Below, in pieces: positions 6,058 through 40,315 of a DNA stretch of 64,000 bases. A program made the position numbers and the translations under genes. Below the pieces are notes generated by a model that was given only the letters and a program-made list of their open reading frames with translations, searched no databases and had not been told where the DNA came from. This DNA comes from a virus (Duplodnaviria; Caudoviricetes): the IMG/VR virus record IMGVR_UViG_3300032218_001677, positions 1 to 64,000 of that record, one strand, 5' to 3'. Positions within the stretch are counted from its first letter, which is position 1; each line of letters opens with the position of its first letter.

Positions 6058-6609
6058 TTAAATACCAGGACAGTTGTGGGGATCGCTACAATCTGGGTAC
6101 TTTTGGGCGTGTGATTGCACTTTTTTCATTGCATCTGCTTCAATTTTTCTAACAGTATCCTTACTAACACCATGTTTTTCAGACATTTCTTCCAAAGTTT
6201 GGTCTTGTCCTCGTTTTACACCAAATCTTGACATAACAATGTCTCTTTCACGGTCATCTAAGACGTGTAAAAGTATGTTCATGTCCTGATTATTTGTTGG
6301 TTTTTTAAGATTTGGCTTACGATCAGGTTGTGCAGCATCACTATATGCCTGGTATTTAGTACCAGCTGCAGCACTTCCTTCATTTTTTTCAAGTATGTCC
6401 CCTTCATGGAACATACTTCTAAGCATATTAAACGTTTCTTCAGGAAACGGTGGGATGCCCGCATTATTAGGGTTGTCTCGCATAGCAGCTAGGCGTGAAC
6501 TAGGGTCACTAAACTCAGAAATTGGCTTAAAACGTTGCCTATCAACCTTACGAGCAGGGTCGTTTGCTCTATTAGGCTTGCTTTCTGATGATGCGGGAAC
6601 GTCTGACAT
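6058..6609 (-). CDS. Protein with only a sigma70 region-4 HTH, carrying an N-terminal RxxDPxRK motif
   Basis: C-terminal LDDRERDIVMSRFG...QTLEEMSEKHGVSKDTVRKIEADAMKKV; no recognisable region 2. Confidence 0.75.
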   Translation of the reverse strand: MSDVPASSESKPNRANDPARKVDRQRFKPISEFSDPSSRLAAMRDNPNNAGIPPFPEETFNMLRSMFHEGDILEKNEGSAAAGTKYQAYSDAAQPDRKPNLKKPTNNQDMNILLHVLDDRERDIVMSRFGVKRGQDQTLEEMSEKHGVSKDTVRKIEADAMKKVQSHAQKYPDCSDPHNCPGI

Positions 6610-6611
6610 GA

Positions 6612-7013
6612 TTACTTCTTCTTTTTAAAAGTGTCTTTAGCAAACTTTCCTGCTGCTCCAATAGCAGCCCCAGCTACTGCACCTGCTGCAGACATTGGTC
6701 CATTAACTATGGGAGCATCAGGATTTTCCAAATTAAGGCCACCTAAAGCTGCTGCGCCAATAACGGCTCCTGTTGTTGAAGCTTGTACATATTCATTATT
6801 TGCAGCGTTAATAGCTGTTTGCTTGATACCGTCCATAGTCATCAACGGTGGCACACTTCCAGTTTTATAACCCATGATCTCGTTGGCCCGAGCCTCATCA
6901 GCTCTACTATTGTCTATTGGCGTTCTGCCATTTTTCATAGAGTATGAAGTCCTTGCACTACCATGTGCATGCTCTCCGTCCATTCCGCCTTTTATCGTGG
7001 ATTTAATAGCCAT
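6612..7013 (-). CDS. Hypothetical protein with C-terminal glycine-zipper-like segments
   Basis: GAVIGAAALGG and GAVAGAAIGAAG; RBS AAGGAG. Confidence 0.65.
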   Translation of the reverse strand: MAIKSTIKGGMDGEHAHGSARTSYSMKNGRTPIDNSRADEARANEIMGYKTGSVPPLMTMDGIKQTAINAANNEYVQASTTGAVIGAAALGGLNLENPDAPIVNGPMSAAGAVAGAAIGAAGKFAKDTFKKKK

Positions 7014-7056
7014 AGCTACTCCTTAAGTTGTTTACCCTATTATAGTCTAAGTTGAC

Positions 7057-7761
7057 TTAACCTTCTCGGCCTCTTCGGCGCTCCAGTAATTCAGGATTGA
7101 GTATTTTAGTTTCAATGTGTTCCATAAATGGGTTTTTCTCGTTTATGGCACCTCTTACCCCAGCTTTTGGAACAACATAGGAAATATTCCCTGAATCTTC
7201 CATAAGATTACGATAAGCCAGTACTTTGTTTTCTCGCATAGATTTCCATGGGCTTACCGGAAAGCTTTCCCATAAATTAGCGGCAACATTATCCCTATCG
7301 GGTGGTATCCACAAGGAATCTCTGTATATTTCTGGGTTTATGTGCTCTACCGGTATTCTATAAGTATGTAGTGCCCCTGTACCTCTACGTGAAGCAGCTT
7401 GTCTAGTTCCAACATGGAAAACACCAGGATGGTTGTTTATACCTTTACCGGGTTCATTAACATGAACTGCATCGGTATCTTCTCTATCTTGTGCATAGTT
7501 TTTTAAGAAATCATGATCTAAGAGTTGCTCATGTGTTGGTGTTTCAAGTTCTTTAAATTTCTTTAAGTCAGAATCAAAGCGGTCGTAATATCCCAAATTA
7601 GAACTAGAAAACATGTCTGTACGCATGGGCAATAAATGCGGAGGGGTTTCATCACTAGATCCATGGTGCACAATTATTTCTTTAACACCAGGTTTTAAAA
7701 ATAATGGACTAAACTGCTTACTTAATGTAGCTTGGTTGCGAGTTACTTTGTCTCTATTCAT
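7057..7761 (-). CDS. ADP-ribosyltransferase-fold protein (putative)
   Basis: VHHGS...VFHVGTRQAA...YRNLMEDSGNISYVV pattern. Confidence 0.5.
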   Translation of the reverse strand: MNRDKVTRNQATLSKQFSPLFLKPGVKEIIVHHGSSDETPPHLLPMRTDMFSSSNLGYYDRFDSDLKKFKELETPTHEQLLDHDFLKNYAQDREDTDAVHVNEPGKGINNHPGVFHVGTRQAASRRGTGALHTYRIPVEHINPEIYRDSLWIPPDRDNVAANLWESFPVSPWKSMRENKVLAYRNLMEDSGNISYVVPKAGVRGAINEKNPFMEHIETKILNPELLERRRGREG

Positions 7762-8194
7762 CTGGGTTGTAACCGTCTTCAGACGCTCTTTTCTTGTTCT
7801 TATCAGTTATATCGTCTGCATCATTGGGCCATTCAAACTTTTCATTTTCCATTTTTTTAAGATCTCTACGAATTGGGCCTCTATTTGCCACAGACGCGTT
7901 AATCATAGCTGAAGTTTTGTCGTGCATATCTAGTACGCCTGATTCTGTGTCAGCATAATGTTGCTGAATATCTTCCGATTGTTCACGAACCATTGGAAGC
8001 ATATCTTGAAGCTCAAACAAAGCAGCTCTAGCCTTTCTGTGTGCATTAACTACTGCAGGACCAGGATTGTCTATAGAAGGAACTCCTATAGTATTATTAA
8101 TTAAAGCGTTAAGCCTTGGGGTAGGACGACCAAATGTTCTACGATTTGGGTCTCTACTTCTGTCTGGAAAATTATCAGGGTGTCCGTGTGTCAT
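7754..8194 (-). CDS. Hypothetical protein with N-terminal RSRDPNRR motif
   Basis: ORF with RBS AAGGA; helical middle region. Confidence 0.65.
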   Translation of the reverse strand: MTHGHPDNFPDRSRDPNRRTFGRPTPRLNALINNTIGVPSIDNPGPAVVNAHRKARAALFELQDMLPMVREQSEDIQQHYADTESGVLDMHDKTSAMINASVANRGPIRRDLKKMENEKFEWPNDADDITDKNKKRASEDGYNPDE

Positions 8195-8204
8195 GTTTAA
8201 ATCC

Positions 8205-8975
8205 TTAATCTGGAAAGTAACCTTCAGGATCTATTTTAGCCCAATTTCCTGTTTCAAGGTCAATATGATCTTTAGCAACTTCGTCATTTTCCCGATCTCG
8301 TTGCCAATGTCTAACGCTTAAAAACTGAGGACCAAGTTCAAACGGATTTTTCCTACTAGTATTTCTTAAACTTTCTTCATTTGGATGTGCAATAGACCGA
8401 TTAACCATTTCAAGTTGTCTAGTACTTGGTGTAGTTCTATTACGATTTCTGTTTGCAAACTCAGTTCTTATTGACTTATCAGCATCTTTAAAAGACTGAG
8501 GGCCATGTGACCCCCAAGGCTCTGACGTACTTATATGCAAGCCACCATCAGATATTTCTTTCATTATACTTCCATGTATACCCCCTACAGGGTAGGTCTC
8601 CGCACGGATCTTAAAGGGCCCACGGTGTTGTAATTCAAATAATGCTTCATCCATGTCTATAATATGGTCAAGTGAATTGTTTCTTGGCTCACTATCTTCA
8701 TGCTCCACCATAGAATCACCACTTGCTGTAAGATGCCCTACAGAAAACTGTAATCCCTCATCATGACTATTAACTGAGAAGAGGTCTCTGGAACCATCCG
8801 GTGACCTGGCAATATGCTTCCTACTAAACTGAGGATGTGTAGAAGATAAATCAACACCCATACCTTTGCCAAAATGTTCAAGCCTTCTAATGTGGAATTC
8901 AGGATCATCTGCCCTGCCTAAACGTCCTGTAGAATCAGGGATCATCAATCCACTTGCGTTACGTAACAGTCCCAT
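8205..8975 (-). CDS. Hypothetical protein
   Basis: 256-aa ORF with RBS AAGGA. Confidence 0.65.
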   Translation of the reverse strand: MGLLRNASGLMIPDSTGRLGRADDPEFHIRRLEHFGKGMGVDLSSTHPQFSRKHIARSPDGSRDLFSVNSHDEGLQFSVGHLTASGDSMVEHEDSEPRNNSLDHIIDMDEALFELQHRGPFKIRAETYPVGGIHGSIMKEISDGGLHISTSEPWGSHGPQSFKDADKSIRTEFANRNRNRTTPSTRQLEMVNRSIAHPNEESLRNTSRKNPFELGPQFLSVRHWQRDRENDEVAKDHIDLETGNWAKIDPEGYFPD

Positions 8976-9050
8976 AATTTAATCCTTTATCATGTGACAT
9001 CCGTCACTATATAAAATCAGCAGTAGATCTATTTTACATCAATTTTAATG

Positions 9051-9539
9051 TTACTTTACAATAGCTCCGGTAAGCTTAACTGCGTCTGGGTCCCACACTG
9101 CAACAGTGCTGTAAGGCTTACCTTCTTTATTCACCCCAGAATTTTTATAGCCATGAAACCCGCGAGATTTTAGATGTTCGTGTAAGGCAGTTCCATCACT
9201 GAGAAACTCCCCATCACGATTCGCTTTGACGGTTGCGCCATGGTCATCTGAGGTGGCCAAACGGGCGTCAGGCGACAATTCTGCGGTAACCACAGCACCA
9301 GGCTCCAGCGGGGCTTTAACGCCGGTATATGGGTCATCATGGTGACCGCCCGTACGGGGAACTACATCAGTGGCGTAGTCTGAAGCTTCGGCAGGGTCTT
9401 CAGTAAAGTACATGGCCTGGCCGTACCGTTTGCCATTAATAGACGGTCTAGTGGTATCAAACCCGTCAGTAAGTATGCTGTTAGCACTGGCCAGTGATGT
9501 GCCATGGTACAAAGCAAACTGTTTAGGATTTAATGTCAT
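9051..9539 (-). CDS. ADP-ribosyltransferase-fold protein (H-Y class)
   Basis: LYHGTS...ILTDGF...YGQAMYFTED...ASDYA and terminal GFHGY...VAVWDPDAVK. Confidence 0.7.
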   Translation of the reverse strand: MTLNPKQFALYHGTSLASANSILTDGFDTTRPSINGKRYGQAMYFTEDPAEASDYATDVVPRTGGHHDDPYTGVKAPLEPGAVVTAELSPDARLATSDDHGATVKANRDGEFLSDGTALHEHLKSRGFHGYKNSGVNKEGKPYSTVAVWDPDAVKLTGAIVK

Positions 9540-9550
9540 TGTTTAATATA

Positions 9551-9871
9551 TTAAAGATCAGGGCGATTAGGTGACAGAAAGGGATAGTACATTGGAGTAG
9601 AATAATTATCGTCATGGCGATTCTTAAATGCACTATCAATAACCTGAGCATCCCACTTGGTGGCGATGTCATCTGGACCAAGGGTATCTCGGTTGTCACG
9701 ATATTCATCTAGGTATTTTTGGTTGTCTTCTGGGGTTACATCTCTTCCATCTGCAGGATAATAACCTTCGTATCTCCAGGCCTTGTTTGTTTGATTAGCC
9801 AGCAAGTGGGCTAACCTGGTAACTTTACGTCGTGGATCTCTTGATGTGTCTTCACCATATGGACGTGGCAT
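9551..9871 (-). CDS. Hypothetical protein with N-terminal TSRDPRRKV motif
   Basis: ORF with RBS AAGGAG and upstream promoter-like repeat. Confidence 0.65.
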   Translation of the reverse strand: MPRPYGEDTSRDPRRKVTRLAHLLANQTNKAWRYEGYYPADGRDVTPEDNQKYLDEYRDNRDTLGPDDIATKWDAQVIDSAFKNRHDDNYSTPMYYPFLSPNRPDL

Positions 9872-9890: not shown

Positions 9891-9906
9891 GAATAGGTCT
9901 ATTATA
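9891..9906 (-). promoter_or_regulatory. Promoter-like 16-mer TATAATAGACCTATTC, copy 1
   Basis: Identical to 10549-10564; begins with a consensus -10 and lies about 20 nt upstream of a start codon. Confidence 0.65.
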
Positions 9907-9908
9907 TC

Positions 9909-10532
9909 TCAGTTTAGAATATGATCGTCAAACTCACCGGTATACATATTAAAATACCTAGGGTTTTCTAGTGGTCCGGAACTTGTGCTTCCTACCTTCA
10001 AGTGGCTTGTTGAACCATCTAAAAAATGAGCTTTACGTCCAAGCATCGCGTCTGTATCAACTCCACGTTCTTTGATAAAATCCATAGTTCTTTCACGGTC
10101 TGCTTCTTCACCTATTACATCCCCTATATGAGGATCTGCACCTGGTCTATCTCTTAGTACTTTGTCAACATGCTCTTTAGCACCTTCTTCATTTAAACCT
10201 ATTTCGTTTCCTTCATTCCATGTCTTGCCACCACTATATAACCCCCATGGAGCAGCACTAACTGTAGCTTCGTGACCTTTTTCTTTAGCACTACCGACTT
10301 GACCAATAGAAAGAGTAGCTGGTATTTTTCTATTTTTTAAAGGTATATTTGCACGTAAGTTACTACCATAATGTTCATCATAAGGGGTATGCCTATACTC
10401 TGGCTGACCTATTGGAACTATATGACCAGTTGGCAGGTGGGCAAACCCCGGGGTAATATCAACACCTGTATTTTCTTTCATACTTTGGAGTATACCTCGC
10501 ATCTGTTCACCAGTTAGATGTTCATGTGACAT
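9909..10532 (-). CDS. Hypothetical protein (start MSHEH)
   Basis: RBS GGAGG precedes the ATG at 10532. Confidence 0.65.
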   Translation of the reverse strand: MSHEHLTGEQMRGILQSMKENTGVDITPGFAHLPTGHIVPIGQPEYRHTPYDEHYGSNLRANIPLKNRKIPATLSIGQVGSAKEKGHEATVSAAPWGLYSGGKTWNEGNEIGLNEEGAKEHVDKVLRDRPGADPHIGDVIGEEADRERTMDFIKERGVDTDAMLGRKAHFLDGSTSHLKVGSTSSGPLENPRYFNMYTGEFDDHILN

Positions 10533-10548
10533 AAGATCCTCCAATTAA

Positions 10549-10564
10549 GAATAGGTCTATTATA
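10549..10564 (-). promoter_or_regulatory. Promoter-like 16-mer TATAATAGACCTATTC, copy 2
   Basis: Exact repeat of 9891-9906 at the head of the minus-strand block. Confidence 0.65.
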
Positions 10565-10799
10565 ACCCATTTGACGGTTGGGCCGCTTTACGTTGTAACC
10601 GGTTAAGTTGCGGAATAGGGCTATATGGGGGGTAGTGGTTCCTTGGCAGCTGGCCTCTACCCCCTGTGCTTGGTGGCGTTCGGCATAATGGTATAGGTGG
10701 TCGGTGAACGACGACAGCGAGTGCTACAAGGCACTGGCGGAAAGTTCTGCAACTGCACCATTTAGGGAAATCACTCCCGCTTACCGAAAGGAAACTCAA

Positions 10800-11402
10800 T
10801 TGTCCACGACAACCAAAGCCCCCAATGTATATGAGCAACTCAGGACGGGTATCACCCTGATGGGCACTGCTGTATCTGCGCAGGTGAAAGCAGAGACATT
10901 CTTTGCGGAATTGTCCTCGCGAGCCACGGCGATCAAGAACAGTATCCCAGCAGAAATCGAACGCGAACTCTCCGATACTTGGAAGAACGCTATCGGTCCC
11001 GTCCCCGCAGGTTTCGGGCGTCTCATTCAGGCGTTCGGAGAGTTCTGCTTGTTGGATAACAACAGCAAGTTCACCGATTACTATCGGGCTTTCACCACAA
11101 TCATGCGGGTCGATGCCACGAAAGTGGCTGATGTGTTTACCAAGTTCAAAACACAGCGTGGTGCTTTCAATGCGTTCGTCGCATTGACCAAGCCTGCCGC
11201 CGCTGTTGCGACTGTTCAAACACCCGCTGAAGTGTCTGCCGAACTGCAGAAGAAAGCCCTTGCCACCAGCAAGGGTGTCAATGCGGTGCTTGCCTCAGTT
11301 CAAACTGAAATCATCGCTGGTCGTATGACCGACGATGGCAAGGCATATCTTGAGAGCCTCGTCGCCGCTGGTAAGACCGCGGCAATGCTGCTTCAAGCCT
11401 GA
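10800..11402 (+). CDS. Alpha-helical hypothetical protein, first gene of the plus-strand early block
   Basis: TTG start after AAAGGAAA, in frame with the track ORF 10704; visibly GC-richer codons; own terminator. Confidence 0.75.
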   Translation: MSTTTKAPNVYEQLRTGITLMGTAVSAQVKAETFFAELSSRATAIKNSIPAEIERELSDTWKNAIGPVPAGFGRLIQAFGEFCLLDNNSKFTDYYRAFTTIMRVDATKVADVFTKFKTQRGAFNAFVALTKPAAAVATVQTPAEVSAELQKKALATSKGVNAVLASVQTEIIAGRMTDDGKAYLESLVAAGKTAAMLLQA

Positions 11403-11413: not shown

Positions 11414-11460
11414 GTGACCCTCACGCTACCTAGTGTAGTGTGAGGGTCACTTTTTTTTTT
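11414..11460 (+). terminator. Rho-independent terminator
   Basis: 16-bp stem GTGACCCTCACGCTAC/GTAGTGTGAGGGTCAC (one G-U) followed by 10 T. Confidence 0.9.
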
Positions 11461-12397: not shown

Positions 12398-12474
<77 letters not shown>

Positions 12475-13137: not shown

Positions 13138-13553
13138 GCCCCTGATGTGTGGGCTAGTAGATGACACTGTGCTATCTGTGAATAGTAGAAGAAATTTACG
13201 AAAGCGTTGGGTAAGGCAGTTTTGGCTTAGATGCCGGGTTTGCCCTTTAGCAGCATCGCTGTCTTACCCCCTAATACATCCCCAGGAAGAAGCGGCTGGG
13301 TATCAAGTGAGCTGATGGGCGAAAGTGTAGGCCCTAGTATCCCGAGTACCTCATCGGGCAAATTACACTACGAGGATATGGTCTGCTCGACCTTAAAACT
13401 GGCAAATTTACAAGACTTGCACATTTGCTTGTATCTTATAAAATGTGTCGTGATTAGAAAGCCAACGTAACGGATTTATCTCGGAATACTGCTTCCGTCA
13501 ACTGTGCAGTAGGCTTTTTGTGTGTTTTTGGCCGTATAACAAAAACACACACT

Positions 13554-13626
13554 GCACCAGTAGCTCAATGGATAGAGCAACAGACTTCTAATCTGTAGGT
13601 TGTAGGTTCGACCCCTACCTGGTGCG
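13554..13626 (+). tRNA. tRNA-Arg(UCU)
   Basis: Acceptor GCACCAG/CTGGTGC, ACAGA-CT TCT AA-TCTGT, T arm GTAGG-TTCGACC-CCTAC. Confidence 0.92.
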
Positions 13627-13649
13627 CCCACCAAAAGAAAGGAATAGTA

Positions 13650-15761: not shown

Positions 15762-17042
15762 ATGGCAAGTGTAAAAGAAATCAGAGTGGGAATGAGAGTG
15801 GTGGGTAAGTACCCGCCGTTCAAAGATGCTGAAGGTGAGATCACTCGCAGTACTCTTGTACCAGGTGGACCTGGTAGCAAGATTGCTGTGCGATTTGACG
15901 ATCCGTTATTGGGTGACGTGGAAATCTTACCTAAGGGTATTGAATTGGTTGGACGTGCTGTCGTTGCAAACGCCGCCCCGTCCAGCAATACAGTTTCACA
16001 AGTCGGAAATGTGATCATCAGCGATATGCGTATCGAATCGCTAGACGATCCTGCTTTGGACGACTTCCGTCCGAACATCAATCCTGCTAACTACGTATCA
16101 CGTACGCTTGCAGGCGGTAAAACAGACTTGGAAGTCATGGAAGCATACTTCAATCGTCGTGATGAGAACGACGGTTATCCAGTCTCGGTTGCCTTGGTAG
16201 GCGATACCCAGTCGGGTAAGACATACTTGATCCAAGTTCAAGCGTTCCGTATTGCGAAGTTGCTCGGCCTTCAGAAGCCATTGCCGTTGTTCCTGCTTGC
16301 AGGTTCATCAGCAATTACAGATCACGACTTGTTCGGCCAGTATCGTCCGATCATTGTCAATGGTCAGGAACGACTCGTATGGATGGAGGGCATCGTTGCT
16401 CTAGCCGCTCGTCTTGGTGGCATCTTGTACCTTGACGAGGTTAACGCTATGTCAGGTTCAGTAACAGCGGCTATTCACCCACTGCTTGACAATCGTCACC
16501 AGTTCGTGAACATCCGTAAGCCTGTTTGGAAAGGAACGGTTGAAACTGATCCAGTGACTGGCGTTGAGACACATCATGGTGCTTATCGTCCTGAGACAGT
16601 CATGGCCAACAAAAACCTGTGGATCATGGCAAGCTGGAACCCCGGCTACGCAGGTATGGCTAAGACCAACGAAGCGTTTGCTAACCGCTTCAAGCTCCTT
16701 GAATGGGGATATGACGAAGAGGTTGAGAAGAAACTCATCAAATCTCCTGCTGTTCGTTTGCTTGGCCAAGCATTACGTAATGCTCGTGCACAACGTAGCA
16801 TTACTACCCCTGTTGGTACTAGAGCATTACAGTTGCTTGAGGGTGACTTGGTTCACCTTGGAGTTGACTACAGCCTTTGGGCTTTCATGGGCCAGTTTGT
16901 GTCATCACAAGAAAAAATTGTAGTGAACGAGATCATCAAGGATCGTGGAATTGCAATCATGATGAAAGACGAATTCGAGCCTGACGTACCTGCGTCAGCA
17001 GTTGACCTCACATCGCTTATTGGCGATAACGAGCCTTACTGA
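15762..17042 (+). CDS. MoxR/CbbQ-like AAA+ ATPase with N-terminal SH3-like extension
   Basis: Walker A GDTQSGKT, Walker B LYLDEVN, ASWNPGYAG, AFANRF. Confidence 0.9.
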   Translation: MASVKEIRVGMRVVGKYPPFKDAEGEITRSTLVPGGPGSKIAVRFDDPLLGDVEILPKGIELVGRAVVANAAPSSNTVSQVGNVIISDMRIESLDDPALDDFRPNINPANYVSRTLAGGKTDLEVMEAYFNRRDENDGYPVSVALVGDTQSGKTYLIQVQAFRIAKLLGLQKPLPLFLLAGSSAITDHDLFGQYRPIIVNGQERLVWMEGIVALAARLGGILYLDEVNAMSGSVTAAIHPLLDNRHQFVNIRKPVWKGTVETDPVTGVETHHGAYRPETVMANKNLWIMASWNPGYAGMAKTNEAFANRFKLLEWGYDEEVEKKLIKSPAVRLLGQALRNARAQRSITTPVGTRALQLLEGDLVHLGVDYSLWAFMGQFVSSQEKIVVNEIIKDRGIAIMMKDEFEPDVPASAVDLTSLIGDNEPY

Positions 17043-17059
17043 TCCTGAGGAGGAATCAC

Positions 17060-27671: not shown

Positions 27672-27985
27672 TCAGCTTCCCGACGAAATAAACACAACGC
27701 AATTATTGCATATGTAGCAATATCCAAAAGGCTGTCCTCAACACCTTCATTTTGAAGGGTTGAACCTTTGGCATATGATTGTAGTCTTACAACTTTGTCA
27801 TTTGCTCTGACCATGGCACCCACCCATGGTGGGATACCCCATTCTTGAGAAGCACTAACGTTGGCAAAGAAGTCCTCATCTGTTCCGTAATCTGCACCCT
27901 TACGGCGATGCATTTCCATAACTTCATAAAGAGCCTTTTCAAATTCCGGATCACCAGTCATGGTACACAGCTCCTTCAAATTCAT
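27668..27985 (-). CDS. DUF1599 / nucleotide-modification-associated domain protein
   Basis: RKGADYG...RANDKVVRL...EGVEDSLLDIATYAII. Confidence 0.7.
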   Translation of the reverse strand: MNLKELCTMTGDPEFEKALYEVMEMHRRKGADYGTDEDFFANVSASQEWGIPPWVGAMVRANDKVVRLQSYAKGSTLQNEGVEDSLLDIATYAIIALCLFRREAE

Positions 27986-28150: not shown

Positions 28151-28450
28151 TCATTCTGAATCTTCTTGTGAAGAAAACAAAAGTACGTTATATACTTCGT
28201 TGGTTAGCCATTCAGCTGCCTTGCGAAGGCCTTCTTCTGAAGAAATGTCCCAATTGACCCAAAGGGTACAACCTTTAGTTGAAAGGTATTCCATTACTTC
28301 TTCTACCCCAACTACAGTTGTCTCAATTGTTGCACCATTTACCATGCTTCCACCAGAGATATTTCCCGATTGGTAAGCATTTTTCCCAACAACAACGTTG
28401 TTGTTACTAGGGGTAACTTGCTTATTGTCTCTCCACCATGTCTTTGTCAT
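28151..28450 (-). CDS. Hypothetical protein
   Basis: RBS AAGGAGG. Confidence 0.6.
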   Translation of the reverse strand: MTKTWWRDNKQVTPSNNNVVVGKNAYQSGNISGGSMVNGATIETTVVGVEEVMEYLSTKGCTLWVNWDISSEEGLRKAAEWLTNEVYNVLLFSSQEDSE

Positions 28451-31109: not shown

Positions 31110-33008
31110 TCAGTAGTTATAATCTTGCGGACGACCATAGTCGTCACTCTCAACACCAAATCTTCGACTTGCCTCAACACCTTGGGAAGGGTAAGCTTGT
31201 CCGGGTCTAGGGTGACGTGAGGGACCTACATAAGGGCTTGAACCCGCAGGAAGTGGTGGTCTAGGGTGACGTGAAGGGCCTACATAAGGTGTTCTTGGTC
31301 CACCGGGTCTAGGGTGACGTGAGGGGGCAGTTTGTGGACCACTTGCGTCATAGTCTTCGCCCATACCCTCATACTGTGGTGGCATTCCACCATTAGGAAC
31401 AGAACCTTGCATAGGAACACCCATGCCCATATCACCAAAACGTGTAGTTTGTGGTGCACCTCTGGTTGGTCCACGTCCACCAAAAGCACCATTCATGGGG
31501 TGACCATAGGTACCTCTTGGGTTTACCTGCTGAATAGGTGCACTAGCAGGACTATCTCCTGCACCAATTTCACCCATAACTCTAGAACCAGGTCCAATTC
31601 CTCTTGGTCCGGGACCTATTTCACCCATTACTTGTGGTCCTGCCGGTAAACCACGATCTGGAGTACGTGTGTACTCTGCTCCTGGACCATAGTTAATTGG
31701 CCCACCACCAGGTGCGGTCATTACACGGTCAGCAGCTTTGTTCCACATTCTTCCAAAGAAACCGGGGCCTTTTGGGGCACCTGTAGAGTTATCCACAGTA
31801 GGAGGTGCTCCAGTGGTGGGAGTTTGCCCAGTACCTGCAGGTACACCACCACGGAACTTCTCTATGTCAGTCCCTGAAGGGGTTGTTGGAAGGCCAGTCG
31901 TAGGAGTTCCTTCAGTTGAAGTACCTTCAATTGCATCAGGAAACTTTTTAGCAAGAGAACCCTCATCTCCTTGTTCCCAAGAAGGACCCTGCCCACCTAC
32001 TCTGCGCTTACCTGGCATTGGATAAGGTTGTTCAGCTTGCCCTGGTGTACCAGTACGTCGTGTCTTCTTTACAACACGTCCTGAACCACCACCAAAGTTA
32101 TCTCCTTGATCAGGAGGAGTCATGGATGACCCTGGTGTTGAGCCAGTTGGAGGGGTTGAACCAGTGCCGGTCGCATCATAGTCCCCACCCATACCTTCGT
32201 ATTGACTAGGCATTCCACCAGTGTTTGAACCGGGCTCACCCTTTCTGGGTAGACCCATGTCTCTTTCACCCATATCTACGGGTTTAAACTTTTGTTTCTT
32301 TTTATCATCTTTAGGTTTATCGGCTTTAGGAGTTTGATCACCACCACCATTCCATGCTGGGTGATTGGGGTCAAACATAAACTGGTTATGGGTCTGCCTT
32401 GAGTTGGCACCACCAATTTGCTGTACGCCACCGTTGTTAGTGGCGCCAAAGCCAACTGACTTATCTGCACTAATGTCTCCACCTGCATTGATAGTTGCAC
32501 CACCAGATTGATTACCAGACTGTTTTGCGTTCATTCCAACTTTTACGTTGTTATTAGATGCTATTGCCATGGCTCCATCACTTCCTTGATCACCTGATGT
32601 ACCTCCACCAGTTTTTGAATTCTTATCTTTTTTATTTTTGTTTTTTAAAGGACCAGCAGCACCCACAAACCTTTTTAAGGTGTTTTCTTCACTAGACCCA
32701 GTTACTCCATATCTAGTACTATTATAGCTTGCACCACTACCAGGCACTTTTACAGTACCACTAACACCACTAGCATTATAAGTGGATGTATTACCACCTA
32801 AACGTCCGCTTACATCTCTGGAGTAAGTAGTTTGAAAACCTGGAGTGGTTGGGTTGCTACCTTCTGTTCTACCAGAACCATTAGCATATGCTTGACGCAG
32901 TTGCCAAGAGCCTGGAAGGATACCTTTATTTTGCAGATTTTGAGTGTAAAAGTCATGTGAAGGTGCTTTACCTTCGTCTTGAGTATAGAAATCTCCGTTA
33001 AAAGGCAT
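31110..33008 (-). CDS. Gly/Pro-rich, largely disordered protein with internal repeats
   Basis: Repeats GGMPxQYEGMGxDYDA x2, PSRHPRP x3, VMGEIG x2. Confidence 0.75.
   Translation of the reverse strand: MPFNGDFYTQDEGKAPSHDFYTQNLQNKGILPGSWQLRQAYANGSGRTEGSNPTTPGFQTTYSRDVSGRLGGNTSTYNASGVSGTVKVPGSGASYNSTRYGVTGSSEENTLKRFVGAAGPLKNKNKKDKNSKTGGGTSGDQGSDGAMAIASNNNVKVGMNAKQSGNQSGGATINAGGDISADKSVGFGATNNGGVQQIGGANSRQTHNQFMFDPNHPAWNGGGDQTPKADKPKDDKKKQKFKPVDMGERDMGLPRKGEPGSNTGGMPSQYEGMGGDYDATGTGSTPPTGSTPGSSMTPPDQGDNFGGGSGRVVKKTRRTGTPGQAEQPYPMPGKRRVGGQGPSWEQGDEGSLAKKFPDAIEGTSTEGTPTTGLPTTPSGTDIEKFRGGVPAGTGQTPTTGAPPTVDNSTGAPKGPGFFGRMWNKAADRVMTAPGGGPINYGPGAEYTRTPDRGLPAGPQVMGEIGPGPRGIGPGSRVMGEIGAGDSPASAPIQQVNPRGTYGHPMNGAFGGRGPTRGAPQTTRFGDMGMGVPMQGSVPNGGMPPQYEGMGEDYDASGPQTAPSRHPRPGGPRTPYVGPSRHPRPPLPAGSSPYVGPSRHPRPGQAYPSQGVEASRRFGVESDDYGRPQDYNY
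31204..31322. repeat. Three 17-bp direct repeats ggtctagggtgacgtga (coding)
   Basis: Starts at 31204, 31258 and 31306; spacings 54 and 48 are in frame and encode SRHPRP. Confidence 0.8.
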
Positions 33009-33009
33009 A

Positions 33010-33303
33010 CTATACGTTCCCTAATGAGTTCATTGAGTACCTTCCGGTACCTTCAAATTCTCCGGTATTCATCTCTGGCATAACTGGCATACCTGAAACC
33101 CATGAACGATTATTTACACCATAACGACTCATACTAAAGATATCCATAAGAGTAGGTGACTGCTTCATAAACCCACGGGTTTGTGGAAATAACTGTTGAG
33201 GAACAGTGGGGCGGATTGCACGTATGGTATCGGGGTCACTAATGGCGGCTTGTAAAGCCTGATCCACTAAAAACTCTTGACGTGACTGCCATGGACGTGC
33301 CAC
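33010..33303 (-). CDS. Hypothetical protein
   Basis: Coupled to neighbours; RBS GGAGG. Confidence 0.65.
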   Translation of the reverse strand: MARPWQSRQEFLVDQALQAAISDPDTIRAIRPTVPQQLFPQTRGFMKQSPTLMDIFSMSRYGVNNRSWVSGMPVMPEMNTGEFEGTGRYSMNSLGNV

Positions 33304-33509
33304 TATTCCTCCGTTTGAGTCTTGAGAACTGGACGCTGTGTGGGTTGGTTACCAAACTTACTGTGGACAACATCTTTGATTGCTTCACCTACTGCTTTGA
33401 AGTCATCACTGATTTCATCAGCAGGGGTAGCTTTAAGGCGTGGACGAACATGAGGGTTGTCCCCACGACCTGCGTCTGCTCCACCTCTGGTGGTCCCAAC
33501 AATTGCCAT
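33303..33509 (-). CDS. Small hypothetical protein (MAIVGTTRGG start)
   Basis: 68-aa ORF packed between neighbours. Confidence 0.55.
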   Translation of the reverse strand: MAIVGTTRGGADAGRGDNPHVRPRLKATPADEISDDFKAVGEAIKDVVHSKFGNQPTQRPVLKTQTEE

Positions 33510-33510
33510 T

Positions 33511-33777
33511 TTAATAACTTATGCCGAGGTTGTTAGTTTGTGGCTCAGGATCTTTATTGTTTCTTTCAGGTTTAACATTAAGTGCAGTACTATCCCATCT
33601 AGGTTGATCTAACGGGGGCTTATTATGTGAAGCGGGTGCTTTATTGGGATCGTTAGGATCATCGGGAGGTCCTTTTCCACCACCAGCAGCTGCGACTTGG
33701 GGGTGTGGAAAATCCTGACGACCTGTGGCAGCATGGGTGCCACCAGAGCCACCTCGCATAGTGTCTTTAATTCCCAT
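33511..33777 (-). CDS. Small disordered hypothetical protein (MGIKDTMRGG start)
   Basis: RBS AAGGAG. Confidence 0.6.
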   Translation of the reverse strand: MGIKDTMRGGSGGTHAATGRQDFPHPQVAAAGGGKGPPDDPNDPNKAPASHNKPPLDQPRWDSTALNVKPERNNKDPEPQTNNLGISY

Positions 33778-34113: not shown

Positions 34114-34617
34114 TCATCTCCACGGGGGAGCAAGTGACTTTAATAGACTTCTTCGTTGCATGTCTATAACTTCTTCTTGAGGGCGGTCTAGGCCCCTAGG
34201 AATGCCTCTAGGACCAGCTTTGCCATCATTAGTTAATCTTACCGGTTCAGCCCCTGGAGGGGCAAATTTGAGGCCCTGTGACTGAAGCACCAAGCCTGTT
34301 TGTAAGTTAAACTCATCTGGCCAGAGATAGTCACCAGCATTGATCCTCTCACCTTTGTGGACACCACGGGTGTAAGGACGGGTATTAGTACGTTGTACAG
34401 CATTTAGAATCTTATCTTGTCGGCGGTTAGACGACATAGTGCCCAAATAACCATCTGGATACTGAGTGTCCGGAGAACCACCCCATGCTGAAAGTTGTGC
34501 GTCTTTAGCATTACGAAAGGTAGGTGTGGGACCTAATAGTGGTTGGCTCTCTGGGGTGTACGGATCGTACCCTCCACCCCAATCAGTAAATGTCTGCTGG
34601 TTTGGACTAGCGGCCAT
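34114..34617 (-). CDS. Hypothetical protein
   Basis: 167-aa ORF; RBS GGAG. Confidence 0.7.
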   Translation of the reverse strand: MAASPNQQTFTDWGGGYDPYTPESQPLLGPTPTFRNAKDAQLSAWGGSPDTQYPDGYLGTMSSNRRQDKILNAVQRTNTRPYTRGVHKGERINAGDYLWPDEFNLQTGLVLQSQGLKFAPPGAEPVRLTNDGKAGPRGIPRGLDRPQEEVIDMQRRSLLKSLAPPWR

Positions 34618-34756
34618 TTACTCCACCAAACGCTCCAAGAATACCACCTTGTCCTCCACCAACATTAGAAATTGGTTTTGGGCGTGGTGTAACCTTCTTA
34701 ACTACTTTTTTAGTAACCTTTTTCTTAGAAGTTGAAGAAGTCTTCTTTGAGGCCAT
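34607..34756 (-). CDS. Small Lys-rich protein (49 aa)
   Basis: Manual translation MASKKTSSTSKKKVTKKVVKKVTPRPKP...GGILGAFGG; RBS AAGGA. Confidence 0.5.
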   Translation of the reverse strand: MASKKTSSTSKKKVTKKVVKKVTPRPKPISNVGGGQGGILGAFGGVNGR

Positions 34757-34936
34757 GACGGTCCTTTTCTTTACGTTTCTGTTTGCGTTCTAGCTTATCT
34801 TGTTCTTCGTATATATCGTCAAACTCATCATCTAAATGTGGTGAATTAGCTAGCTTGCGCCAATCATCATTGTTATACTTACGCATAATTAAATAGCATA
34901 CCTTTACCTAGTGTTAGTGTGTACCATTATAGGTTA

Positions 34937-37900
34937 TTAATTTCCAATGGTAGCTCCGGTTGCTCTTGAACGCAACAACTGACCAGCTACCGTGCTTATG
35001 GCACTGTTTCTATCTGCTGTTAACTTTTCGTGTTGCTTTCTCTGTCGACCAAGTTCTCTTGCATTAGTAACTGGGCCTTCATCAGTTGTGGAGTGTATCA
35101 TTTCTCCAACTTCGGATTCTGTGGGCTTATAATCTGGATTTGCTATTATTTTTCTACCAGCTTCCCCACTTTTACCAACTGCATAACTATCATCTATAGT
35201 TTTGCTCATAGGTGTTCTGCTCATTCCACTTTCAGGAATGCCTGATACTGAGCTCATTGTAGGTGCTGGTGGTATTTCCATACTTGGAGCACCAGTACCA
35301 AATATTGCTCCCATTGCATTCAAAGTTCCTTGCATAACTTGAGGAGCAAATTGTTTTGCTTGGGTTACACGTGCATAAGACTCATTTGGGGTAGTTCTAA
35401 GTACATGTGCATGACGTTGTATTGCAGTTTGGTGTTCTGGCGATACAACTGCATTCTTTACAAGAGATCCATAACCAGCAGGCATTGGTGCCGGTGTTGG
35501 GTCTTTTTCAAAGAAAGTTTCAGGTTTTGAATAGTTTTGTGGACTTGGCCCAGATACAGCCGGTGGTTTTCTTCCACCAGTTAAATCTGTAAACTGCGGT
35601 GCATTTTGTCTAGCTAATCTACCGCGCATAACAGCTAACTTAGTAGTGTTTTTAGTGTTGAGTTGTGTTCCAATTGAAGTTTGTGCTGAAAGGCTACGAG
35701 GAGTAACAATGCTTTGGTTAATGCCAAGTGCTTTTGCTAAGTTAGCTCTATCCACTGACGCTTCTGGAATAGTAAATCTTTGGTTAGCTCTTGATGGAGC
35801 GGTAGTGTCGTCACCAACAACAGTAACATCCCCATACTCTCTTTCGGTTGATGTTCCTTCAGCAACAGGGGTATTTTGATCCATTCGATCACCGGCTGTT
35901 GCTACTTCCCCAAATTGTAAACTGGTTAAACCAGATATTCTAGCTGATGGTGATACTGGTGTAAACCTACCAGTTGCGTTTAAGGCCAAGTGAATAATGT
36001 CTTCTGGAGCAAACCCAGCTAAGTTTACTCTATTTGCAATTTCACGTCGTTGTCCTGGTGCTATCTTTTCAGTTACTCTGGGAAGTCCTTGTATTCTTAC
36101 ATATTCACCTGTTCCAGTTTTTGTATTAAAGGTGTTGCCTAAAACATCAAGTGCCGAAACTGGTGTAGCACCAAGACTTTTAGCGTTTTCTTCTGTTGCA
36201 GCAAAAACTTCTGCTTGACCAGTTGGAGCAGTTATTACATCTCCAGTTTCTGGGTGTCGTGCTAGGGTTCCTGGATCTTTTGGAACAGTTCTAGTAAGTT
36301 GTTTACCATCTTCTCCTAGTTCTGGGACTTTATTACCGTCTTTATCAAGAACATGTAGTTTGGACGTTCCCACATGCTTACCATCTGCGTTATACCTCTT
36401 AACTTCTTGCATTTTAAATACAGGTTCTTCTACGGTTTCTTCTGAAGGCGGGGTTTCCCATACTGGCATTTGTTTTTGTTGTAATACAGGTACCTTTTTT
36501 GGAAGTGAAGTTCTACCAAAGAAGCCTCTAGGTGCAGGGCCACCACGAACTGCTCGACTTTCACCAACTTTTGGTGTGTCTGGTCCTTGTTGAAGTACCC
36601 GTTCCGTTGGGTCTTCTGTCATTGTAGTTGTTGTTGCAGCTCTTGGGTTAATGTAATGCCCTTCAAATTTTGAAGGAACCATAGAAGCAATATGGCTTTC
36701 CAAGGACGCAATGGCGTCTTCATTCAGGCCTTGCTCATCTTTAGCGGCATCATAGTCTGCGTTTTCACGAAGGTCACCCATTTGAGCGGCTGTACCAATT
36801 TGTTCAGAGATGCGTTGTCTTTCGCTTTTTCTCCATTCAAGCTCGTTCTTATGACCTGTTAATTGCTCTTCACTAACGAAGTTATCAGGATGGGTTTCAG
36901 GAGTACCTACTGGTTCACGTCCAACTTTGTTATAAGCTATTTGTCCTCTTTCACGCGTTTTTGGAGCAGAGGAAATTGGGTTAACAATACTCTTATGAAG
37001 AGCTTTAAGAACATCTACTCTAGTGTTAATATCTAATTCATCATTAATTGAATCCTCTAACTCTAGGGGGATGGGTGCACCCTCAGCGTCTGTTACAGGG
37101 TTTTGTCGTATATCTTTTTTTAGACCGGCTTTAGCTTCAAGAGCAGCAATATGCTCTTCCATCGCTTTCTTTCCAGCTTTAGTAATTTCTCTCTTATGAG
37201 TAAGCTTCGTTAATCTATGTTGTTCTTTTTCTTCTTTAGTAGCATTACTTCTAAGTACTCCTAATTTAGTGTAACTAGGGTTTATCATGCCGGTTTTTGC
37301 ATCAACTGCTTTTGGATGTTGCATAAGTGGGTCGTCACTATTAAGCAACGTGTGCATTTCTTGTTCTGCTTTTTTACGAACACTCTGAAGTTCCGAAAAG
37401 TCACGTAAAGCTTGTTCAACATGAGGCTTACGCTCATTTAAGGCATTAACCTGAGTTAATAGCCGTTCACCTTCTTCTTTGTGAGCGATACTGTCGTACT
37501 CATCAGTAAGAGCATGCTCTTCAGCTCTTTCTTTTGACATCTTTCCAGCAGCAACTTGTTGTGCATCAAACTGATTACGACTTAATAATGCTGGTTTATA
37601 ACCAGCTGCTTTTTCTGCTATACGCTGTCTTGCAGCTGGTTCTACTGCTGATGCAGAAATGGCTCCTAGCCATGCAGGCAATCCACTGTTCTTTATTATA
37701 TCTTGACCAACTTCTTGTGTGGTCTTGCCTGTAGCAATTATGCCTCCTGCGGTAGCTTTCATTTTACGAAGAACACCAGGTTCAGTCAATTCACCTTTTT
37801 CATCCACTTTTACAGAAGGTGCAAAGTCAAGAGCATCATCCATACTGTCTGCGTTGTTACTTATTAAATCCCCAAGTTTTGCTTTAATACCATCTGGTAA

Positions 37901-40315
37901 AGCTTCGCTACCACCGGCTGTTAGGTTGCTTCGGCCTGAACCAATTCTATAATCATTTCCTTGAACGTAGTATGCAGGTACAGACATTGAACGCTCAGAT
38001 GCGTCTTGAGCCATTTCCTGTAGAACTATGTTATTTTCTCCACTTACAAAAGAACTAGGGCGTCTAAGAATAGTTCTCTTAGGCTTACCTCTACCAGTAC
38101 TCTTTTGTTGGAGTGTGCTACCTTTTGGAGCAGCAACTACTGCTACTGGGTCTAATCCAATATCAGTTGAAGTTCTACCAATTCGACTTGGAGATTCACT
38201 TCTAAGTCCGGCACTTCCAAGACCAGCTTTCCTTGCCTCTGTGATTGACTTTACGTTAAACTCAGCTTCAGATATTTGTGCGTCTAGAGCATCATGATCT
38301 TCTTGAGAAAAGTTTGTTCTATCTGTACTATGTAGTTCTTCTAACTTATTTTGTGCATCAAAAACACGACTTTCGGTTAACTCAGGGTTATTCTTTTCAA
38401 ACTCGAGTACTTTACCCTTGTTAACTTGTAACAGTTTCGAATCTGATTTTGCTTCAGCATTTACTATAGCTTCTTCAGCTACGTTATTACCTTTTTCAGT
38501 GTTACCGGTTATAACACTGTTTGGGGGGACACTATTGTAGGTTTCATCAGTAGCTTTTGTTAAATCATTTGTTTGTACTTCCTGTGTGTCTTTTTTCCAT
38601 ACTTTTTTAGCTTTTCCACTACTATCTGTTTTAGTTCTTTGCTGACCAGTAACTGGGTCAATGTCCGGAACTCTTTTAATGATAGTTTTTCCTCTTCTTG
38701 TATAGAATGTTCTGTCTTTATAAACAGGTGCCGGGGCTCCTCTAGTTTCTTCTCCTGCCCGAAGTCTGAGGGCGTTTAAGTCAAACTGTGATGATAGAGC
38801 TCCAGCTCTACGAATACGTTCTCTATCTTCTGGGGCTACTTTATCTAATTCTTTTTCAGAACGTGTGCGCTCTTCATCTGAAAGTTGGGTGCCTTCTTCG
38901 GCTAGGGCTTCAGATACAGGGTTGGCCGTTGGGGGATTTACAATTTCATTACCTTGAAGCATGTATTGTGATAATGCTTCTGCATTTAAAGCGTTTAAAG
39001 CAATTTCTGATCGTACAGTACCACCTTTTCTAGCTCTGTCAAGAACATCTGCTGCGGCTGTTTCACCTTTAACTCTTTCAGCTAACACGTTATTAGCAGT
39101 ATCTGTTCGTTTAGCAAGATCTTGGGTACCGGTCCACATACCAACTGATGCTTCTGTGGTAGCGGGGGTATCACTACGTTGTTCAATTGGGAGATCTGAC
39201 TCATCTCTTTGGGGACCTTCTTGCATGTTTGTTGGTGCAAGCTCTTCATCTGGGGTATCTCCCCAGCCTTCCATATACAGAATATGGGAAACATAATCTT
39301 TATTATTTGGTTTACCATCATTACCATGCCCCGTACGACTATACCTATCTCCACGGGCTTTACTTGGAATAAACCCACTGCCTCGTAAACTACTTAAAAT
39401 TTCTTGCACATGTGGAAGAGCTGCGTCTTCTTGATGTACTTCTGGTTTTTGAGATTTTTTAGGGTCATTTGTAGGATTTGAGTGACCCTCTTCTCCAGGT
39501 CGTACAATACGAATATGGCCTGCATCAACTGCTGCTTTAAGTAACCAATCTGCTCGTTGCCTTCTTGGAGTAAGGCCAGTACCTTTTTGGATCATAGGTA
39601 TGGTGTTACCAAGAGCACTATTTTCTCCTAAATCTTTAGCAAGATCAGTAGCGTCTGAAAACTTAGAGTCATCACTTTTACGTATGTTTGCCTCAATAGG
39701 CAGTACCGGACTCTCTTTACCGGCTTTCCCAGTAGGAGTTGTTTTAGTTACTTTCTTTGTCTTTTTTGCACCTTTACGAACAGGAACATCAGTTGTTACA
39801 GTTTGCTTTGTACCACCAACAACTCGGGTAGTACCATCAGCATCTGTAACTTTTTCACGACCTTGTGAGGCAAGGACTACTCTTTCCTTAACTTCAGCAA
39901 TATCAGTGCTAGTTGGAAAGTTTTTCATAAAAGTTTTTTTATTTTTTGCTACTTTTCTGAGTTCTCTTTCAGTACCAAGTTGTTGTATTTCAGATTCAGC
40001 TACAGCTGCTCCTCTATCAGCAGCTCTTGCAGAACCACGCTTTTCTCGGTCCGGGTTATCCCTATTTCGCTTAATTTCTGCTTCAATAGCAGAAGCTGCC
40101 ACATCCTTATGCCTTCCCATAAGGGCTCGTACAGCTTTACTAGCCTGTCCAAGTAAAGGTCTGTAGCTGGGGTCTGCTTCTACCGCGCTCTTTTTACCAC
40201 TTTCACCAATTTCATAAAAACCTTTAGATGCCTCAAGCAACTTTTTGTAGATTGCTTGGTCTTCTGCAGACAATAGTTCAATTTCGGCCTGTGTGGGGGC
40301 GGTTTGCTTTGCCAT
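34937..40315 (-). CDS. Giant (1792 aa) multidomain, largely low-complexity protein with an embedded GreA-like coiled coil
   Basis: Uninterrupted ORF with RBS GGAGA; contains RISEQIGTAAQMGDLRENADYDAAKDEQGLNEDAIASLE. Confidence 0.85.
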   Translation of the reverse strand: MAKQTAPTQAEIELLSAEDQAIYKKLLEASKGFYEIGESGKKSAVEADPSYRPLLGQASKAVRALMGRHKDVAASAIEAEIKRNRDNPDREKRGSARAADRGAAVAESEIQQLGTERELRKVAKNKKTFMKNFPTSTDIAEVKERVVLASQGREKVTDADGTTRVVGGTKQTVTTDVPVRKGAKKTKKVTKTTPTGKAGKESPVLPIEANIRKSDDSKFSDATDLAKDLGENSALGNTIPMIQKGTGLTPRRQRADWLLKAAVDAGHIRIVRPGEEGHSNPTNDPKKSQKPEVHQEDAALPHVQEILSSLRGSGFIPSKARGDRYSRTGHGNDGKPNNKDYVSHILYMEGWGDTPDEELAPTNMQEGPQRDESDLPIEQRSDTPATTEASVGMWTGTQDLAKRTDTANNVLAERVKGETAAADVLDRARKGGTVRSEIALNALNAEALSQYMLQGNEIVNPPTANPVSEALAEEGTQLSDEERTRSEKELDKVAPEDRERIRRAGALSSQFDLNALRLRAGEETRGAPAPVYKDRTFYTRRGKTIIKRVPDIDPVTGQQRTKTDSSGKAKKVWKKDTQEVQTNDLTKATDETYNSVPPNSVITGNTEKGNNVAEEAIVNAEAKSDSKLLQVNKGKVLEFEKNNPELTESRVFDAQNKLEELHSTDRTNFSQEDHDALDAQISEAEFNVKSITEARKAGLGSAGLRSESPSRIGRTSTDIGLDPVAVVAAPKGSTLQQKSTGRGKPKRTILRRPSSFVSGENNIVLQEMAQDASERSMSVPAYYVQGNDYRIGSGRSNLTAGGSEALPDGIKAKLGDLISNNADSMDDALDFAPSVKVDEKGELTEPGVLRKMKATAGGIIATGKTTQEVGQDIIKNSGLPAWLGAISASAVEPAARQRIAEKAAGYKPALLSRNQFDAQQVAAGKMSKERAEEHALTDEYDSIAHKEEGERLLTQVNALNERKPHVEQALRDFSELQSVRKKAEQEMHTLLNSDDPLMQHPKAVDAKTGMINPSYTKLGVLRSNATKEEKEQHRLTKLTHKREITKAGKKAMEEHIAALEAKAGLKKDIRQNPVTDAEGAPIPLELEDSINDELDINTRVDVLKALHKSIVNPISSAPKTRERGQIAYNKVGREPVGTPETHPDNFVSEEQLTGHKNELEWRKSERQRISEQIGTAAQMGDLRENADYDAAKDEQGLNEDAIASLESHIASMVPSKFEGHYINPRAATTTTMTEDPTERVLQQGPDTPKVGESRAVRGGPAPRGFFGRTSLPKKVPVLQQKQMPVWETPPSEETVEEPVFKMQEVKRYNADGKHVGTSKLHVLDKDGNKVPELGEDGKQLTRTVPKDPGTLARHPETGDVITAPTGQAEVFAATEENAKSLGATPVSALDVLGNTFNTKTGTGEYVRIQGLPRVTEKIAPGQRREIANRVNLAGFAPEDIIHLALNATGRFTPVSPSARISGLTSLQFGEVATAGDRMDQNTPVAEGTSTEREYGDVTVVGDDTTAPSRANQRFTIPEASVDRANLAKALGINQSIVTPRSLSAQTSIGTQLNTKNTTKLAVMRGRLARQNAPQFTDLTGGRKPPAVSGPSPQNYSKPETFFEKDPTPAPMPAGYGSLVKNAVVSPEHQTAIQRHAHVLRTTPNESYARVTQAKQFAPQVMQGTLNAMGAIFGTGAPSMEIPPAPTMSSVSGIPESGMSRTPMSKTIDDSYAVGKSGEAGRKIIANPDYKPTESEVGEMIHSTTDEGPVTNARELGRQRKQHEKLTADRNSAISTVAGQLLRSRATGATIGN

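Follow-up and report, generated by a model that had tools for sequence, protein, structure and literature searches.

Two groups of genes that appear to be directed at host transcription lie in the window analysed here, the 64,000 nucleotides that make up the first 64 kb of the 89,790-bp contig IMGVR_UViG_3300032218_001677. The phage is probably an uncultured freshwater actinobacterial myovirus. One group, called block A, is a minus-strand operon running from position 10532 to 6058. It encodes a protein that has region 4 of a sigma factor only, a stand-alone ADP-ribosyltransferase (ART), and several otherwise unrelated small proteins that share short N-terminal peptides, called tags below. The other centres on a giant protein (34937-40315), which is encoded in a run of replication genes and contains a Gre finger. 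The domains, motifs, modularity and operon layout of these groups are observed; tentatively, and with a little less than even confidence, they are read as two separately controlled sets of host-takeover genes made in the infected cell. A preliminary description of the window had seen in them a single tagged kit, made late, packaged in the virion and injected. That the genes are aimed at transcription is borne out by the sigma region 4 mimic, the Gre finger and two WhiB genes, and that they are modular by the occurrence of short N-terminal peptides on unrelated bodies in a hypervariable locus.

Block A is isolated between a divergent plus-strand gene (10704-11402) and a convergent plus-strand gene for a family-2 glycosyltransferase (5479-6057; PF00535, E 1e-13), which closes the block and converges on it in the relatives too. 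In a pattern scan, the divergent control region (10533-10703, minus strand) has TATAAT at 10559-10564, where the promoter-like GGGTTATAAT is followed by the leader AGACCTATTC, 27 nt ahead of the first ATG of block A. The relatives of block A compared here are the loci L005 to L011; the close relatives are all metagenomic. In L005, L006 and L008 the promoter-leader is near-identical, and so is a GC-rich non-coding stretch of about 170 nt that lies before the promoter (10570-10760). A second copy of the promoter-leader, GATATAAT plus AGACCTATTC, was located by the pattern scan at 9901-9908 (minus), 30 nt before the gene 9551-9871. The promoter-leader thus has two copies in this genome; it has a single one in the relatives, directly before the ortholog of 9551. 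For that reason the first gene of block A, which is absent from the corresponding place in the relatives, looks inserted, having either brought the cassette or duplicated it. Consensus scans for sigma-70 promoters and terminators scored no better, or hardly better, than shuffled sequence both in block A and near the giant gene, and so were not used for timing. An Rfam search of the control region matched no family.

A repeated promoter-leader ahead of variable accessory genes recalls the mobile promoter cassettes (PeSL) of T4-type phages, and gene content that differs among close relatives is also a feature of the T4-type hyperplastic regions (PMC2839356, PMC4122927). The block A sequences are, however, unrelated to PeSL, have no visible stem-loop terminator part and are present in just two copies in the genome. 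The relatives that share the conserved upstream stretch differ elsewhere. Its hairpins are GGGGGTAG...CTACCCCC and AGTGC...GCACT, and in L008 it runs past the annotated start of the divergent gene. A minus-strand open reading frame (ORF) at 10560-11219 was rejected as spurious, being Cys/Arg/Gly-rich with a TTG start and no ribosome binding site (RBS). The overlapping plus-strand gene 10704-11402 was preferred; it has orthologs in all relatives and is followed by a terminator at 11414-11450 with a 16-bp stem and a T10 tail.

The minus-strand genes of block A begin with a 207-aa hydrophilic orphan (9909-10532) that matches nothing in Pfam or PHROG. This is followed by a 106-aa protein recognised by its N-terminal motif SRDPRRKV..RL (9551-9871), the 162-aa ART with the tag MTLNPKQF (9051-9539), and a 256-aa orphan (8205-8975) that has no Pfam or PHROG assignment, is conserved in relatives and carries a weaker DDPEFHIRRL near its N-terminus. 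Next are a 146-aa protein (7754-8194), in which motif and profile define the N-terminal module HPDNFPDRSRDPNRR..TPRL, and a 234-aa protein (7057-7761) proposed as a second ART. A 133-aa protein (6612-7013) with the N-terminal tag MAIKSTIKGGMDGEHAHG, identified by motif and orthologs, has a Gly/Ala-rich, glycine-zipper-like C-terminus and was found in every relative seen. The gene for the sigma region 4 protein is the last. Gene content varies between phages: the ART is present or absent, as are genes for ParB-like and HExxH proteins, and the sigma region 4 gene is replaced by genes of 108 aa and 40 aa in some relatives. Scans of IMG/VR and JGI data for relatives of block A returned none, or just two short contigs.

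The sigma region 4 protein (6058-6609, 183 aa) matches Sigma70_r4 (PF04545) at aa 113-165 with an E value of 2e-12, and region 4 spans about aa 110-167. Region 2 was not found with Pfam, and PHROG and PDB matches are confined to aa 85-171. Lacking region 2, the product is not a sigma factor; judged on sequence, it is a region-4-only protein, as had been proposed. Among solved structures its nearest chains come from region 4 of primary sigma factors (4g6d, 1.5e-8; 6ono), and the PDB matches include region-4 constructs crystallised with phage G1 ORF67 and with WhiB1. Residues 1-105 are hydrophilic with few order-promoting residues; the disordered N-terminal half carries NDPARKVDR, and a conserved Cys/His tail (CSDPHNC) comes after region 4. 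Several residues that we take to be -35 contacts are changed, VTRERIRQIE of sigma A reading VSKDTVRKIE here. A docking of WhiB on this mimic was considered; the His-Pro pair on which mycobacterial sigma A critically depends is out of register in the alignment. T4 AsiA, and phage G1 ORF67 on S. aureus sigma A region 4 (PDB 4g6d), have the same interface of the transcription machinery at stake; those proteins bind region 4, whereas the protein of this phage is itself a copy of region 4.

Two proteins with an ART fold had been described in block A, and one of them stands. The product of 9051-9539 matches PF00644 at 37.4 bits, over the cut-off of 26.7, and its H and Y motifs align to tankyrase in a PDB alignment (YHGT and YF against HGS and YF). 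The third catalytic strand reads YSTVAVWD by eye, with no Glu, the printed profile alignments ending before this strand. The protein is best classed as a stand-alone ART of the H-Y clade (PARP/ExoA type) with a predicted activity. For the product of 7057-7761 the fold was not confirmed: there was no Pfam or PHROG match, hhalign to the confirmed ART gave a probability of 0.1, the AF2 model had a pLDDT of 35, and a language-model lead to ART toxin clusters (0.87-0.89) was weak and sub-threshold. Nothing was found when 50,697 deposited phage records were searched, at DNA and protein level, with the ART and with the giant gene or protein; the ART has no detectable homolog among them, and no close relative of the phage is deposited. 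As in T4, with its packaged Alt and its early, unpackaged ModA and ModB, a phage ART is found here among genes acting on host transcription. At 162 aa it is in the size class of ModA and ModB and not of the 682-aa Alt. The T4 ARTs are of the R-S-E clade, in contrast to the H-Y (PARP/exotoxin A) clade of this ART, in which the third catalytic position is apparently not Glu.

Short motifs had also been described at the N-termini of several unrelated small proteins. When the first 25 residues of 139 ORFs were compared across the genome, they were on the whole no more alike than interior or shuffled windows; the signal resides in specific motif families, which are clearly non-random and which the relatives strengthen. 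In the 29,129-aa proteome DPxR[KR] is limited to three places, all at aa 12-17 of block A proteins (the sigma region 4 protein and the products of 7754 and 9551). When profiles were made of each of these N-termini, the best non-self matches were the other block A N-termini, each individually weak. A 24-residue MAIK..GG..G.H profile made from 6612-7013 matches 33511-33777, 33303-33509 and an ortholog in L001 at residue 1, with E values from 6e-5 to 2e-4. The two matched genes are small and in tandem (33303-33777, minus; 88 and 68 aa), and their products start with the MxIKxTxRGG tag of 6612-7013, which is conserved in ten orthologous clusters. In L001 one gene with this tag is at the corresponding place, and in the more distant L012 three tandem genes have a MAIK..GG-type start followed by unrelated tails.

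The MTLNPKQF of the ART also begins two unrelated proteins of L006, one ParB-like (DGHHR) and one with HExxH. The DNA similarity of the MTLNPKQF genes starts precisely at the ATG and not upstream, and the codons differ at synonymous sites, differences that show selection on the peptide. Without their tags, the bodies of the tagged proteins show no similarity among one another. In L006, positions 1838-3823 hold three adjacent MTLNPKQF-type starts, belonging to the ParB-like protein, an ART and a 316-aa protein with a zincin-like HELGH motif; the presence of the last two gene types varies among relatives. The sigma region 4 proteins of L010 and L011 have an N-terminus like that of 7754 and unlike that of the sigma region 4 protein in the window. 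The profile is weak (E 0.09-0.6) and BLASTP detected no similarity between the N-terminus of 7754 and the L010 protein; weakly, this suggests an exchange of modules. Two adjacent small proteins in L011 (1187-1882) start with MA[TS]DHRG..[VI]HAGKRT[TS]DE and then diverge, and may be a further tag class.

By their motifs the tags fall into at least three classes, and a motif scan of the proteome found none on structural proteins. A Tat or Sec signal was rejected as an explanation, there being no hydrophobic h-region, and conservation at the RNA level was rejected because synonymous sites vary. The internal proteins of T4 are diverse and share just a capsid-targeting sequence (CTS) (PMC3012670). 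Like block A, they are unrelated small proteins from a variable locus with a short shared N-terminal peptide (PMC3012670). In contrast to the T4 system, there are at least three classes of tag here, and one class is at aa 12-30 rather than at residue 1. Genes for a prohead protease or a scaffold core, moreover, were not recognised.

The giant protein, of 1792 aa (34937-40315, minus), is hydrophilic and mostly disorder-like in composition, and its homologs are found only in a small metagenomic clade. Order-promoting residues make up 22% of it against a proteome median of 33%, and are similarly low in block A and in the neighbouring small proteins. The Gre finger that had been reported in it is confirmed: aa 1147-1211 (36683-36877) match the N-terminal coiled coil GreA_GreB_N (PF03449) with an E value of 2e-15, and phmmer matches the segment to 1grj at 1.6e-5. 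The acidic tip is kept, with GDLRENADY against GDLKENAEY of E. coli GreA (D41 and E44), and is invariant in five orthologs. The hairpin is modelled by AF2 at a pLDDT of 87-93 and superposes on RNA polymerase (RNAP)-bound GreA/Gfh1 (4wqt_X; VIA Z 7.3, rmsd 2.0 A over 66 residues), although the Z alone is unspecific for hairpins. A Foldseek search of the PDB with the segment gave no significant row, GreA entries appearing at E 2.7-7. The C-terminal globular domain of Gre docks on the beta-prime rim helices. In the giant protein this domain (PF01272) has no Pfam match at E <=0.1, and beyond the hairpin the model shows coil of low confidence.

The giant protein contains one Pfam domain and matches no PHROG, and an atlas search with it gave no usable match. 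When 1.84 billion representatives were searched exhaustively by phmmer with aa 1-1140 as the query, the only matches were its own clade and one distant ortholog, P0020, encoded at 10001-15058 of L012. This protein of 1685 aa is 28-37% identical to the giant, keeping its N-terminal 166 aa (37% identity) and central region (28%), and lies in the same synteny of SpoVS, giant and genes of 53, 46 and 167 aa. It has no Gre motif and no Pfam domain; the Gre finger is therefore an inserted module, acquired by one lineage on a disordered scaffold that was already present. A word-based search for further long proteins with a Gre module returned the same clade only. In the collection of papers searched, none described a phage Gre-like module. 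Two overlapping tiny genes right after the giant gene (34607-34886) are conserved in L001 and L012. One product, of 53 aa, is very acidic/basic; the other, of 49 aa with a pI of 12, has a Lys-rich stretch and then a Gly-rich tail.

With Gre factors, Gfh1, DksA and TraR/lambda Orf73 (PMC9239242) the giant protein shares an entire antiparallel coiled-coil finger whose tip holds the two acidic residues. The finger differs from GreA and GreB in being embedded in a 1792-aa disordered protein that has no Gre C-terminal domain. There is also a likeness to the polyvalent proteins of phages and conjugative elements (PMC5512222), which join at least two disparate effector domains in a single polypeptide, commonly together with MuF or a zincin peptidase, in that the giant is a very large phage protein with a host-directed module and the ART of block A is related to the ART-PolyVal family. 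It differs from these in its single recognisable domain, with no MuF, zincin peptidase or other hallmark domain, and its gene is not adjacent to the portal or terminase gene.

The minus strand holds about 85% of the genome, the main exception being a plus-strand block at 10.7-25.3 kb. The structural operon runs on the minus strand from about 89.7 kb down to 56.06 kb and is closed by a strong bidirectional terminator (56002-56029; 12-bp stem, 8 GC), after which comes a small plus-strand ferritin/Dps unit. A second minus-strand run, headed at 54829 by genes for primase, helicases, DNA polymerase I and RecA, goes on to SpoVS (40378-40659), the giant gene, small hydrophilic genes, a 632-aa protein, a DpdA/TGT-like protein and WhiB, with no terminator before about 27.2 kb, where it ends in a hairpin and T-run (about 27.21-27.25 kb). 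A pattern scan located an extended -10-like element, TGGTATTAT (40354-40362, minus), 47 nt before the giant gene, and elements of this class are also in intergenic positions upstream of 81745, 34617 and 27189. The promoter-like elements of block A and of the giant gene are therefore different.

In the tentatively favoured reading, that of two gene sets acting inside the infected cell, we infer the timing of expression, the targets and the addresses of the tags. Set 1 (10532 to 6058) would be a hypervariable accessory operon, transcribed from a promoter-leader of consensus host type that is present once or twice. Its products, small, hydrophilic and disorder-rich, would be a PARP-like mono-ART of Mod size, a mimic of sigma region 4, a glycine-zipper protein and orphans. 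The mimic could engage the partners with which region 4 of sigma A interacts, namely the beta-flap tip and WhiB-type factors. The N-terminal peptides, of at least three classes and exchanged among unrelated bodies, would be address or adaptor modules for a putative common partner. Set 2, encoded in the run of replication genes, would be the giant disordered protein, to which one sub-lineage has added an intact Gre finger. The finger could enter the secondary channel of RNAP and there relieve backtracking or exclude host factors. The giant gene does come after primase, helicase, DNA polymerase and RecA and before the DpdA-like and WhiB genes.

Several observations weigh against this. The consensus -10 elements are no proof of early expression. 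In codon usage block A (r 0.94) and the giant gene (r 0.88), with low GC3 and rich in ATA and AGA, resemble the baseplate/tail genes and are unlike replication, plus-strand or head genes. ATA and AGA are the codons served by the phage's own tRNAs, and the resemblance may be a matter of origin or of expression level and not of timing. As an intracellular regulator a protein of 200 kDa is costly, and such a protein is typical of virion cargo. Tags shared by unrelated proteins in a variable locus match the pattern of the T4 CTS exactly (PMC3012670), and the sole near-full-length match of the ART, although sub-threshold, is to ART-PolyVal, a family named for injected polyvalent proteins.

The observations on codon usage, the tags and the ART-PolyVal match speak for the kit of the preliminary description, in which the tagged proteins and the giant would be made late, loaded into the prohead through their N-terminal peptides and ejected to reprogramme RNAP. 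It gains further from the unusually hydrophilic, order-poor character of the candidates, which we infer would suit passage through the tail, and from the size of the giant, which is like that of the packaged N4 vRNAP and P1 DarB (PMC5512222). This kit is nevertheless considered doubtful, for the genome layout does not favour it. The co-orientation of block A and the giant gene with the structural genes is real but trivial, nearly every gene outside 10.7-25.3 kb being on the minus strand, and with about 85% of the genome on that strand the argument from co-orientation is void. Late expression is not what the layout indicates: block A forms an operon by itself, led by a conserved TATAAT promoter of consensus type and closed by a convergent gene, and the giant gene follows replication genes. 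Nor do the two look like one kit, being apart, in different transcription units with unlike promoter-like elements, both outside the morphogenesis operon that ends at its own terminator. Homologs of 34114-34617, a neighbour of the giant gene, belong to the non-structural arm in Streptomyces phages, a distant ortholog of the giant has no Gre finger, and the ART is Mod-sized. The tags are of three or more classes, one of which (DPxRK) is set back from the extreme N-terminus, and structural proteins are free of them. Searches with Pfam and PHROG revealed no prohead protease, MuF, portal-linked or peptidase domain, in a genome where several head-module ORFs have no assignment. A T4-like cargo system might have evolved independently in this actinobacterial myovirus, several classes of address peptide loading exchangeable RNAP-directed effectors into the capsid for injection. 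The cargo would then be the PARP-like ART, the sigma region 4 mimic, membrane-active small proteins and the 200-kDa disordered carrier of the Gre finger; this is thought unlikely.

That the tags have no common function, the ART, sigma region 4 protein and giant being independent of one another, is put at the same low level of likelihood, its two variants taken jointly. The tags would then be footprints of gene entry, by recombination in the first codons behind a reused promoter/RBS cassette, or would mark fast-diverging paralogs with disordered tails. The promoter-leader cassette is indeed duplicated and gene content variable, 33511 and 33303 are tandem copies of one L001 gene, low-complexity tails could diverge past recognition, and N-terminal similarity is not above controls genome-wide. 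However, the DNA similarity begins at the ATG and not upstream, the peptide is kept despite synonymous differences in the tag codons, both between paralogous positions and between orthologs, and one tag is found on clearly different bodies (ParB-like, ART, HExxH, glycine zipper, Pro-rich tails). If the genes are independent, the ART might be an anti-predator 'Trojan horse' toxin of the kind proposed for freshwater actinophages (PMC6802176), although it is of the H-Y clade and not of the VIP2 type of that report. Finally, the giant might be a hub, attached to RNAP by its Gre finger, to which the N-terminal peptides bring the small effectors, so that the ART and the sigma region 4 mimic are concentrated on the polymerase. 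The long disordered chain has many conserved short segments, motif-like segments (..SSQFD.., RNRDNPDREKR) occur inside it, and a finger with no anchoring Gre C-domain would need other contacts. However, the giant family also exists without the finger and the internal motif matches are at chance level. A hub is rated very unlikely.

Freshwater low-GC Actinobacteria are among the commonest lake bacteria, and these genes bear on the means by which phages subdue them. Two new modes of action on bacterial RNAP would be represented by a phage-borne copy of sigma region 4 and a phage-borne Gre finger. Exchangeable N-terminal peptides could be a general addressing code, for the capsid or for a host hub, that helps to assign functions to many orphan proteins of phages. 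Were the capsid the address, the peptides could also serve for loading cargo into actinophage particles.

The GC content is about 42%. An actinobacterial host is pointed to by the two WhiB genes and by the best matches of the DNA polymerase, which are in Streptomyces phages at about 32% identity. One WhiB-like protein is encoded at 27288-27671 (minus; PF02467, E 7e-15) and its paralog at 23579-23842 (plus). A contractile tail is indicated by PHROG and Pfam matches, which on the minus strand locate the terminase (81804-83363), portal (77820-79514), major head protein (75816-76958), sheath (69788-71314) and tape measure (65170-68193); tube and baseplate proteins of T4 type were also matched. Metagenome-derived freshwater actinophages with WhiB and ART genes have already been described (PMC6802176). 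The tRNA genes are tRNA-Ile(UAU) at 4166-4240, tRNA-Met at 12398-12474 and tRNA-Arg(UCU) at 13553-13630. The use of ATA and AGA is highest in block A, the giant gene and the baseplate/tail genes and lowest in the head genes.

In the same hydrophilic run as the giant gene, 31110-33008 (minus) encodes the 632-aa protein, which is Gly/Pro/Ser/Thr-rich and of low complexity with internal repeats (GGMP.QYEGMG.DYDA twice and VGPSRHPRP three times). Order-promoting residues make up 18% of it, and a 31-aa segment is 58% identical to the 99-aa product of 28151-28450. The DpdA/queuine-tRNA-ribosyltransferase-like protein is encoded at 28491-29918 (phrog_887, E 5e-38), and the product of 27668-27985 has a weak, sub-threshold match to DUF1599 ('nucleotide modification associated'; E 1e-3). 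From such matches the phage probably carries a DNA modification of 7-deazaguanine type, and transcription of modified DNA could be one reason to retain Gre activity.

On the plus strand, 15762-19279 encodes a CobS/MoxR-like AAA ATPase (phrog_249) and then a 739-aa protein with the sole HExxH of the proteome (VVYHEGGHIM, aa 141). The latter may be a metallopeptidase partner and is outside the head module. The 181-aa product of 26644-27189 has a signal-like N-terminus and orthologs with a weak match to SLT (lytic transglycosylase), and a 41-aa segment of it is 49% identical to the 443-aa product of 2783-4114.

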